IMG/VR virus record: IMGVR_UViG_2703718806_000008
Strand: one strand, 5' to 3'
DNA from: a virus
Lineage: Duplodnaviria > Heunggongvirae > Uroviricota > Caudoviricetes
Length of the DNA stretch: 64,000 nt
Made by a program: the position numbers. Of the stretch, positions 33,601-36,600 are shown piece by piece (within the stretch, counting starts at the first letter, position 1; every line of letters starts with the position of its first letter).

Positions 33601-36600
33601 AATGGCAAGGAAGAAAAGGATGTTACTGCACGATTTGACAAATCCGCCAGAGCTATCGCATACTGACCGCACTGAACTTACAAGCGGTCATCCGCACCCG
33701 ATAGCTTTGCGGCTTTTTTATGCCCGTAATGCGGCATAGTCACATCCGTACAAAGGTCGGGTGGAGAGGCGTAATACAATACCCGTAAGGGGAATATGCC
33801 CAGAGCTTCTTGTAAGGCTCAGTTGACACCCGACCAACCAGCTACTAACTGGTTGAGCTAACTAAACTTACAAGGAGGTCATCATGACTAGTCAACTCAT
33901 CCCCGTATTCAACGGCACTATCGCCAACGAAACCACTCTTCTCGTTAATGCCCGTGATTTACATACTTTTCTTGGGGTAGGTAAACGCTTTGCGTCTTGG
34001 ATTACAGAACGCATTGCTGAATATGGTTTCGTTGAAAATCAGGACTATATTTTGGTTTCCCCAAATCGGGAAATCAAAGGTCGAGGAGGCGATCGCCGTA
34101 GCAAAGACTATCACCTCACCCTCGACACAGCCAAAGAAACGGCGATGGTTGAGCGTAACGAAAAAGGCCGCCAGATCCGCCGCTACTTCATCGAGTGCGA
34201 AAAGAAACTTCGCAACATTCAGCCAGTACAAACTGAGCTGCAATTCACAGCCGAGGAAATCATCCTCCTCTGCTACATGCAACTCTGGATGGAAAAAGCC
34301 CAGGACCTCAGCAAACACCTGTATCCCATCATGAAAGAGCTGAACTCATCATACACGAACAAGCTGTATGACATTGCGTTTGAGACTATCTACATGGTGA
34401 CGAAGAACAAGGAAGCACTACTGCGGGAGGCGGCACAGCTTGACCAGTCAAGTTTCGTTGTCCAGCGGGCCAGACCAATGCTGAAAAGCCTGCGGGCAAG
34501 GCAATTCGAATTCTAAAACCAAAGGAGCTTCGGCTCCTTTTTTCATGCCTGAAGGAAAGGAAAATGGCAGATATCATCGACAATGCCGCTGAAATCGAAG
34601 AATTGCAGCGCAATCTCTCCCTGCAAAAATACAAATCCGATAGTAATGCCCCATCTGCTACTCATTGTTGCGAGTGTGGCGATCCGATAGATGAGCGGCG
34701 ACGCCAGGCTGTTCGTGGATGCCGAGCTTGCGCAAGTTGCCAGCAGGATATTGAACTTATCAACAAACAGAGAGGTGTGAAGTGAACGGAGTTAGCTATC
34801 AAGCACTGCGGCTGGCGGCAGAAAATGCAACACCAGGCGAATGGTGTACTGATGACTATGGGGTTATTGCCAATGCCGGACTGAACGCCAATTACTACAT
34901 AGCATCATGCTCAGGACCAGATAATCGCGCCAATAAGCGATTCATAGCAGCAGCCAATCCGGCTACCGTCTTGGCACTGCTGGATGAACGGGAAAGAAAC
35001 CAGCAATACATCAAATCACGCGACCAGGAGAACGAGGATATTGCGCTAACGGTAGGGAAGCTGCGCGTTGAGCTGGAAGCAGCAAAATCAAAACTCAACG
35101 AGCAGCGTGAATATTACGAGGGTGTAATCGCGGATGGAAGTAAGCGCATTGCAGAACTGGAGAAAAGCGAAGAGCAACTCATTAATGAGCGTGACCATGC
35201 TGAGTCTGCTTTAGCTGATATGTACTTTGCAGCAACCGGGGATAGGCCTGAGTGGAGTAACTGTTTCAGTTTTTCAGATGCTGTCGATGCCGTGGTTGAC
35301 AGAATTGCTGATTTAGAAGCTAAACAGCCATCGCCAGTAGTGCCGGAAGGACTGGTTAAAGCAGTGCGCTTCTATGAGCAGGTAAAACGTGAGAATCCGC
35401 CAGCCGAAACAGGTGCATGGAAAGATGCTGTTGACTGGGTACTCAAAGAGGCTTGTCAGGTTGTAAACATTCGCATCAAAGGAGAGTGATATGATTCACT
35501 ACCACGGTGGGCCTATTACTCCTGATACGTGCGCAATGAGAGCATGGAAAGGGCGACATGCGTTTATCAGTTTTGCGCATTCAGGCCAGATCAATCTCGC
35601 TGCTGAATACTGTCAGTCGTTCGCGCTGGACAACGGTGCATTCACCGCCTGGAAAGCAGCTGGCAAAAACAAAATCGACTGGAGCGATTACTACGAGTTT
35701 GTTGCTCGCTGGAAGAATCACCCAGGATTCGATTTTGCCATTATCCCGGATGTTATTGATGGCGGAGAGGAGGAAAATGATGCGCTTCTGAATGAGTGGC
35801 CTCACGGAAAACTAGCTGGCGTTCCAGTGTGGCACATGAATGAAAGTGACGAGCGATTTATTCATTTGTGCAATGAGTTTCCGCGAGTGGCTATCGGTAG
35901 TTGTGGCGACTATGACGTAAAGCGCCCAACTCTTGCGGTAGCCAGAATGAAAGACCTGATTCGTCACATTGTTGATGAGCATGGTCAGCCGGTTACGAAA
36001 CTACATGGATTGCGCATGTTAAATCCGCTGATATTCACAAAATTACCCTTAGCCAGCGCAGATAGTACGAACGTCGCTCGAAACATCGGTATTGATAAAG
36101 CCTGGTCTGGGGCTTATGCACCTGCAAGTAAAGAGACACGCGCAGCATTAATGGTAGAACGGATTGAGGCACACAATAGCCCTAGTTCTCTTGCGTATTG
36201 TGAACAACGCGACCGCTTTGAAATGCAATTGCAACTGGCAGTTTAAGGACTAACAAATGACCACTATAACCAAAGAGCGACTGCTGACAATCAAGCAGTG
36301 GCGCGAAACATACGGACCTGGTAGCAACGTTGTACTGCCAGCAGAAGAAGCGGAAGAACTGGCACGGATTGCACTGGCATCGCTGGAAGCAGAGCCTGTA
36401 GCGTAATGCATTGTTGAAGATGGGGGCATGTGTATTGACGGGTTCGGTGAGTATGTGGGTCACTCGCTACCTGATGGAACGCACCAGCTTTACACTGCCC
36501 CTCCAGCGCCAGTAGTACCTGAAGAAAAACCAATGCCTAACCCTCTTAAAATGTACGCGGTCGATGCTGTTGCCGCTATTGCAGAGGTGAGAGGCTGGAA

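Follow-up and report, generated by a model that had tools for sequence, protein, structure and literature searches.

A compact, zinc-less DpdA-like gene of the tRNA-guanine transglycosylase superfamily in an Escherichia coli prophage

Phage DpdA enzymes exchange guanine in DNA for 7-deazaguanine bases and thereby escape restriction, and those that are encoded without the genes for making their precursor have been described before. Hutinet et al. 2019 (Nat Commun 10:5442, PMC6884629) name, in their Supplementary Data 1, a "third group" of 76 phages that have a DpdA but no genes for the synthesis of preQ0 (7-cyano-7-deazaguanine) or G+ (archaeosine), and SPN3UB, HK106 (YP_007151699), SfI, BTP1, SEN1, Athena1, PEAT2, SE131 (AVJ48251) and 7-11 belong to it. 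Here we analyse a DpdA-like gene in the IMG/VR virus record IMGVR_UViG_2703718806_000008, a stretch of 64,000 nucleotides of Escherichia coli chromosome with a prophage in it, which we call the window. A relative with demonstrated DNA modification is the DpdA of phage 9g, which alone puts dPreQ0 (2'-deoxy-7-cyano-7-deazaguanosine) into plasmid DNA in E. coli from host preQ0 (PMC6884629); it is encoded beside FolE, QueD, QueE and Gat-QueC, and 9g DNA carries dG+ (2'-deoxyarchaeosine). Bacterial DpdA (bDpdA; PDB 7UI4; Gedara et al. 2023) has 413 amino acids, with the insertions Ins1, Ins2 and Ins3 and a 128-residue Ins8 that is pinned by a CXCX2CX22H zinc site, and it needs the ParB-like ATPase DpdB. 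Cap10 of type IV CBASS (cyclic oligonucleotide-based antiphage signalling system; PDB 9NTN; Wassarman et al. 2025 preprint) has as its ligand the N-terminus of a CD-NTase modified with NDG, and its gene lies with those of the QueC-like Cap9 and CdnD. Bacterial tRNA-guanine transglycosylase (TGT, here Tgt for the bacterial protein; PF01702; PDB 3UNT) has about 375 amino acids, an N-terminal beta-sheet lid, tRNA-binding insertions and a zinc site.

The protein in the window belongs to the already published singleton DpdA cluster of gamma-proteobacteria. The original prediction, which was made from the DNA alone and proposed a stand-alone DpdA-like enzyme of 251 amino acids, was therefore right, and the family is not new. 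It is 92.8 % identical to SPN3UB_0054 of Salmonella phage SPN3UB, which, being the only matching open reading frame (ORF) in that genome, should be the listed YP_007011024. The identity is 36 % to gp29 of HK106, whose accession is the listed YP_007151699, and 35.7 % to AVJ48251 of SE131, and the SE131 gene is in turn 99.6 % identical to the gene of 7-11. It is thus an orthologue of the catalogued DpdA-only proteins. They are of the same family, stand alone without phage genes for a preQ0 pathway and have about 250-266 amino acids, and nothing substantive sets the window protein apart from them. The position within the phage varies, as the gene is found in the nin region in SPN3UB, in the ea region in HK106 and E. 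coli UTAK-6, and here in an ant-TraR-Ead-DpdA-DUF551 block of a ynfG prophage. The gene and the parts of it that are discussed below are the following.

35491..36246, plus strand: compact, zinc-less DpdA-like ORF of the TGT superfamily, ATG start, 251 amino acids
35480..35484, plus strand: its Shine-Dalgarno sequence AGGAG, 6 nucleotides 5' of the ATG, read directly from the sequence
35626..35643, plus strand: LDNGAF, residues 46-51, at the C-terminal end of strand beta3
35746..35754, plus strand: P86-D87-V88, just after strand beta4 (80-84), with P86 and D87 invariant in the family alignment
35824..35835, plus strand: PVWH, residues 112-115, where strand beta5 ends, with H115 invariant
36004..36015, plus strand: HGLR, residues 172-175, where strand beta7 ends, with H172 and R175 invariant
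36055..36069, plus strand: SADST, residues 189-193, where strand beta8 ends, with D191 and S192 invariant

The ORF is found at exactly the coordinates that had been given for it. The family profile phrog_887, named queuine tRNA-ribosyltransferase, matches residues 1-248 of the protein with E=1.4e-103, and a pairwise BLASTP against the DpdA of phage 9g pairs the catalytic motifs of the two proteins in an alignment of 152 residues (E=2e-7). When an alignment of 43 sequences of the window family (A1, with members down to 33 % identity) was compared in hhalign with an alignment of 14 sequences of the 9g DpdA family (A2), the probability was 95.6 %, with E=1.2e-8 over 162 columns. There is thus significant homology to an experimentally validated phage DpdA, and we regard this comparison as the decisive one. 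Together with the identity to the SPN3UB protein these matches support a stand-alone DpdA-like enzyme, and all tests that are able to reach this divergence agree with it. That the protein is a member of the phage DpdA branch of the TGT superfamily is, in our view, highly probable. The window protein and 9g DpdA share the motifs D-x-G-A-F, P-x-x-H, H-G and D-S, including His196 of 9g DpdA, and neither has a CxCxxC motif or a match to the Pfam TGT family; they differ in that the identity is as low as 22 % and that the 9g protein, with 317 amino acids, has an N-terminal extension of about 45 residues and a C-terminal one of about 60. The family has many members. With clustering at 90 % identity more than 7,800 clusters were scored, and with clustering at 50 % identity 824 had E<=1e-3; relatives are encoded on more than 576 IMG/VR stretches and in 108 GenBank phage records. 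None of the listed family proteins has a TGT Pfam annotation, and nearly all of them are unnamed or "hypothetical".

The original prediction rested on the motif ALDNGAFTAW and its resemblance to a substrate-binding motif of TGT. The motif is present as residues 45-54, at 35623-35652, one codon to the right of the position first given for it (35620-35649), and the likeness goes beyond chance, as the motif is conserved in the 43 homologues and aligns with LDSGAF of 9g DpdA. D47, N48 and A50 do not vary among these homologues, and at least 90 % of them keep G49 and F51. From these alignments D47 is predicted to be the general acid/base and F51 the base-stacking residue; they would correspond to Asp95 and Phe99 of bacterial DpdA, and LDNGAF to D73/S74 of Cap10. 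D87 is the predicted base-recognition aspartate and may be the equivalent of bDpdA Asp130 and TGT Asp156; the aspartate of 9g DpdA that aligns with it in hhalign stands 3 residues later. PVWH aligns with PCFH of 9g DpdA both in BLASTP and in hhalign, and H115 is the likely equivalent of His181 of bacterial DpdA. In the BLASTP alignment HGLR is paired with HGFG, and H172 with His196 of 9g DpdA, the conserved histidine that separates DpdA from DpdA2 (Hutinet et al. 2019, PMC6884629). The window protein thus has, in H172, the histidine of DpdA, and in Cap10 the analogous catalytic pair is H226/D248 (Wassarman et al. 2025 preprint). SADST aligns with SCDSS (D215) of 9g DpdA by both methods, and D191 is the predicted catalytic nucleophile, probably corresponding to Asp256 of bDpdA and D248 of Cap10. 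The proposed equivalence of D47, D87 and D191 to D95, D130 and D256 of bDpdA is one of position. The rest of P112-V-W-H115, G136, G139, R217 and E226 are further residues conserved in the 43 sequences. The three active-site aspartates of the TGT superfamily (D47, D87 and D191) and an aromatic residue four positions after the first of them (F51) are thus all found.

The spacing of hydrophobic and aspartate residues had also been judged compatible with a TIM barrel, and this is borne out by the AlphaFold2 model, which was made from the 43-sequence alignment and has eight beta/alpha units, each a strand and a helix (predicted local distance difference test 85.4, predicted template modelling score 0.82). 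The modelled (beta/alpha)8 barrel resembles TGT/DpdA structures most, as expected for the superfamily, and Cap10 is its best structural match. Among the predicted viral structures of BFVD there were 26 matches with E<=1e-3, and all of the named ones are phage queuine or queuosine tRNA-ribosyltransferases. The active sites of TIM barrels are found at the C-terminal ends of the strands, and it is there, or just beyond, that the model places the catalytic candidates of the window protein, on strands 3, 4, 5, 7 and 8. By position, this modelled layout matches the published active sites of bacterial DpdA and Cap10, to the latter of which D122 also belongs. The window protein has none of the insertions of bDpdA, no zinc site and no DpdB, and its neighbours are ant, TraR, Ead and DUF551 genes rather than dpdB and dpdC as in the bacterial Dpd system. 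There is no sequence-level match between the window protein and Tgt, and none was found by hhalign either when the family profile was compared with E. coli Tgt as a single sequence.

Queries with FolE, QueD, Gat-QueC, gp07 and QueE of 9g and with QueD of Caulobacter phage DMCA, as well as with Vut_1, found no gene for the synthesis or transport of preQ0 in the window. As the prophage has no gene for synthesis or uptake of a precursor, the natural reading is that the enzyme depends on a 7-deazaguanine precursor from the host. For the nearest relatives (at least 67 % identity, 80 IMG/VR loci, 1.1 Mb) the outcome was alike, as FolE, QueC, QueD, QueE and Vut_1 were found neither in the 80 loci nor in the window. 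There is no conserved partner gene in these loci either, be it a ParB-like analogue of DpdB or an amidase that could explain dADG (2'-deoxy-7-amido-7-deazaguanosine); the neighbours are mosaic, and the ParB-like motif DG[HNQ][HT]R was seen in neighbouring ORFs of only 2 of the 80 viral loci. With no precursor genes and no conserved partner, this near clade is genuinely stand-alone.

Other relatives do have such genes beside them. YhhQ is named as the preQ0 transporter by Hutinet et al. (PMC6884629), and a Vut_1 gene (PF02592; YhhQ family) adjoins the homologue in the Rhizobium phages RHph_N3_2 and RHph_X2_30. In the RefSeq record of Pectobacterium phage PEAT2 a "queuine tRNA-ribosyltransferase" and a "VUT family protein" are adjacent, and in an enterobacterial P22/lambda-like prophage the Vut_1 gene overlaps the start of the homologue (P0126). 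In DMCA a QueD/PTPS-like gene comes directly before the homologue, which overlaps its stop codon; the QueD-like protein has 98 amino acids and a Pfam score just at the threshold. P0126 is a fusion of 460 amino acids, where a DpdA-like domain with all motifs intact is joined to a Dam (PF05869) DNA adenine methyltransferase, and it is one continuous ORF in the three assemblies shown; with its Vut_1 gene it looks like a compact module of uptake and two DNA modifications. Another homologue, P0353, has a D12-class adenine methyltransferase fused to the DpdA-like domain. In a third apparent fusion, P0385, the partner is a Phage_GPD baseplate domain; this one is probably a chimera of assembly or gene calling and was left aside. 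Genes of MT-A70 or Dam-like type are immediate neighbours in at least 13 of 80 IMG/VR loci. E. coli UTAK-6 has a copy that is 99.6 % identical in nucleotide sequence and lies in the canonical early-left operon of a lambdoid prophage. The genes there are kil, gam, bet, exo, TraR, Ead, DpdA, MT-A70 and int in this order, with TraR, Ead and DpdA arranged as in the window, and the early-left position has the timing that the modification of replicating phage DNA calls for. In a UTAK-6 stretch (12125-12742) an MT-A70 family DNA methyltransferase is encoded a few genes downstream of the DpdA-like gene, and the strain has three DpdA-like copies.

The gene is present in 204 of the 5,426 complete E. coli genomes, and in the 12 RefSeq records listed it is called a "hypothetical protein". 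It is carried by a Stx1a-converting (Shiga toxin-converting) phage record, with 98.4 % protein identity, and also by Salmonella phages. In the comparison with SPN3UB, where nucleotide identity is 81.5 % and the amino acid identity is the 92.8 % given above, the ratio of nonsynonymous to synonymous substitution rates (dN/dS) is 0.02, and the gene is thus under strong purifying selection.

We hypothesize that, after infection or induction, the enzyme would flip a guanine out of double-stranded phage DNA, with D191 forming a covalent ribosyl-enzyme intermediate. D47 would act as acid/base, D87 and H115 would read the base and H172 would position D191. The intermediate would then be resolved by a 7-deazaguanine made by the host, likely preQ0 from FolE, QueD, QueE and QueC of E. 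coli and possibly preQ1 (7-aminomethyl-7-deazaguanine) or a derivative. The product would be dPreQ0 or a derivative of it at a subset of the G positions, by which restriction may be blunted, and by analogy with phage 7-11 the modification can be expected to be sparse or specific to a motif. That proteins of this clade insert 7-deazaguanine into DNA appears fairly probable, and it is borne on indirectly by the dADG of phage 7-11, the preQ0 insertion by 9g DpdA, the YhhQ-family and QueD-like genes beside family members and the fusions to DNA methyltransferases. The best explanation overall is that the window protein is a minimal singleton phage DpdA that modifies phage DNA with host 7-deazaguanine, to which we give a probability of roughly 0.7.

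Several results weigh against this explanation. No Pfam family, PF01702 included, matches the window protein or any of the 43 homologues even at E<=10, the NCBIfam scan of the protein gave no informative match, the PADLOC scan matched it neither to the DpdA model nor to any defence system, and a profile hmmsearch and a phmmer search of the PDB sequences returned no TGT or DpdA. The original prediction had itself named the lack of a Pfam TGT match as something that would refute it, and formally this is what was found, but the experimentally validated 9g DpdA is not matched by PF01702 either and the absent match is therefore no valid refutation; the PADLOC DpdA model also matches 9g DpdA at an E-value of 0.02 only. 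The sole match in the searches of PDB sequences, a snake-venom metalloproteinase, was spurious (E=0.66). Foldseek against the PDB gave generic TIM barrels only, with E of about 1e-3. Of the CXCX2CX22H zinc site there is no CxCxxC in the 251-residue sequence, and the DNA-binding insertion Ins8 of bacterial DpdA is absent. The zinc-site motif is, however, also missing among the invariant residues of the 9g DpdA family, so the zinc site is not defining for phage DpdA. The DNA of phage 7-11 has only 50 dADG per 10^6 nucleotides (about 0.02 % of G) and no dPreQ0, and the DNA of Orion is unmodified, though the host of Orion makes no preQ0 (PMC6884629). Phage 7-11, whose protein is about 36 % identical to that of the window, provides the sole wet-lab datum. 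Then there is the position of the gene at the end of the prophage, in a mosaic accessory block, and its loss in a close relative. In E. coli JNEC-KY171, the closest genome with the same ynfG prophage, a deleted and frameshifted remnant of 179 bp (13692-13870) is left of it, and the genes that flank the remnant are 99.7 % identical to the window. The loss is thus recent, and as the gene has been reduced to a remnant there, it is dispensable to the lysogen.

Some of these points could also be explained if a TGT-fold enzyme had drifted to another DNA activity, for instance to a plain glycosylase or nickase that acts on foreign or modified DNA as a prophage defence or exclusion factor, or if only a vestigial exchange were left. 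The very low modification in 7-11 and its absence in Orion would fit this, as would an accessory block where the gene sits next to an antirepressor, hok and other moron-like genes, and a gene that can be lost from a close relative. We think that this is unlikely, although it is the likeliest of the rivals. Among the homologues there is little or no variation in the three catalytic aspartates, the two histidines and the stacking Phe, dN/dS is 0.02, PADLOC has no defence system that fits, and the repeated linkage to genes for uptake or synthesis of preQ0 argues that a 7-deazaguanine is still the substrate.

A more speculative thought, which we consider rather doubtful, is that the compact zinc-less singleton clade may install rare site-specific 7-deazaguanine marks, or act on an acceptor other than DNA as Cap10 does on a protein-linked deazaguanine, rather than provide bulk anti-restriction. 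The purpose might then be to mark phage DNA for the control of packaging or replication, or to counter deazaguanine-based host defences such as type IV CBASS, QatABCD or Dpd.

The name queuine tRNA-ribosyltransferase, carried by PHROG 887 and several phage records, would instead suggest a tRNA-guanine transglycosylase, through which translation would be tuned by a change in the queuosine or preQ modification of host or phage tRNA, and the fold and the catalytic residues are indeed common to TGT. But the label is a transferred name, and 9g DpdA, the nearest relative with experimental data, acts on DNA independently of the Tgt of the host. The zinc subdomain and the insertions that hold the anticodon arm of the tRNA are missing, the chain ends 60 residues past the nucleophile D191, family members are fused to DNA methyltransferases or adjoin them, and E. 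coli already has a Tgt. We therefore regard this explanation as quite improbable.

Very improbable is a Cap10-like enzyme that acts on a protein-linked 7-deazaguanine or another acceptor that is not a nucleic acid, e.g. as a counter to type IV CBASS or another deazaguanine-based defence. Cap10 is the best structural match, as said, but there is no detectable sequence similarity between the two proteins, and neither a CD-NTase with the N-terminus M(G/S)G(G/S)GG nor a QueC-like Cap9 flanks the ORF, as they do in an operon of the Cap10 type. Finally, an unrelated TIM-barrel enzyme with a coincidental ALDNGAF is hardly credible, even if the top PDB matches in Foldseek, all with weak E-values, are tryptophan synthase alpha, aldolases and other generic TIM barrels, and even if Pfam TGT and the single E. 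coli Tgt sequence give no match, as it is rejected by the BLASTP against 9g, by hhalign, by the fold and catalytic residues common to TGT and by the BFVD matches.

The surroundings of the gene in the window are those of a prophage boundary. The chromosomal genes ydfJ, rspBA, ynfA-D, speG, ynfE and ynfF of E. coli reach to about 33.3 kb of the window, and then the prophage breaks ynfG and extends beyond the end of the window. At the junction (about 33343-33880) a short 5' remnant of the gene for this 4Fe-4S subunit is left after ynfF, and the ynfEFGH selenate/tellurate reductase operon is thus disrupted in the source strain. There is no integrase gene at the ynfG-side end of the prophage. A plus-strand accessory block lies between the chromosome junction and the late genes, which are on the minus strand and encode portal, major head, tail fibres, internal virion protein, Lom and a polyvalent protein. 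The features around the DpdA-like gene are given below.

33884-34516, plus strand: AntA/AntB antirepressor (Pfam and PHROG matches)
34564-34785, plus strand: TraR/DksA zinc finger (Pfam and PHROG matches)
34782-35489, plus strand: Ead/Ea22-like protein (Pfam and PHROG matches)
36257..36886, plus strand: DUF551 gene with an internal, in-frame stop at 36404-36406
37150-37332, plus strand: hok/gef-type (MokW-like) toxin ORF
37452-37796, plus strand: OB-fold stress protein of the BOF/YgiW/YdeI family
38229-46652, minus strand: polyvalent protein ORF of 2,807 amino acids with LPD38, LPD5, LPD1 and MuF_C domains, at the distal end of the late operon

The Ead/Ea22 gene ends with its stop codon (35487-35489) 1 nucleotide ahead of the ATG of the DpdA-like gene, and translational coupling of the two is therefore possible. 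The ant, TraR and Ead genes upstream (33884..35489) are context for the DpdA-like gene rather than functional partners. Downstream of it, a 49-amino-acid ORF and a DUF551-like protein had been proposed, and both are there (36257-36406, and 36428-36886 with 152 amino acids), but they are not separate genes. They are in one frame with a single stop codon between them and are hence one interrupted DUF551 gene; PHROG_60 spans both consecutively, and the orthologue is labelled "DUF551, internal stop" by PGAP (Prokaryotic Genome Annotation Pipeline). Scans of 33340-38300 found 8 promoters against 6.0 expected from shuffled controls and 6 terminators against 5.5 in the controls, so there is no excess of either and no operon was defined from them.

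The hok/gef-like and BOF/YgiW-like genes look like moron-like cargo at the end of the prophage, between the accessory block and the late genes. The ORF of 2,807 amino acids is of the kind of large polyvalent proteins that are thought to be injected with phage or conjugative DNA, and it is followed by a phrog_601 protein of 421 amino acids. Positions 1-20000 of the window hold a second, apparently degraded lambdoid prophage region in a Qin-like position upstream of ydfJ, where minus-strand ORFs at 3086-4421 could be a lysis cassette, judged by the ORF layout.

We found no dedicated study of DpdA in lambdoid or Stx prophages later than that of Hutinet et al. 2019. What remains of interest is what the singleton DpdAs do, as the one tested phage, 7-11, shows trace dADG only. 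For annotation, "hypothetical proteins" of this kind can be named DpdA-family DNA-guanine transglycosylases. If the enzyme is active, temperate phages of pathogenic E. coli would carry 7-deazaguanine bases in their DNA with nothing but a precursor of the host, and this would have consequences for the restriction barriers to phage transfer, for base-calling in nanopore and single-molecule real-time (SMRT) sequencing and for the prediction of phage-host range.

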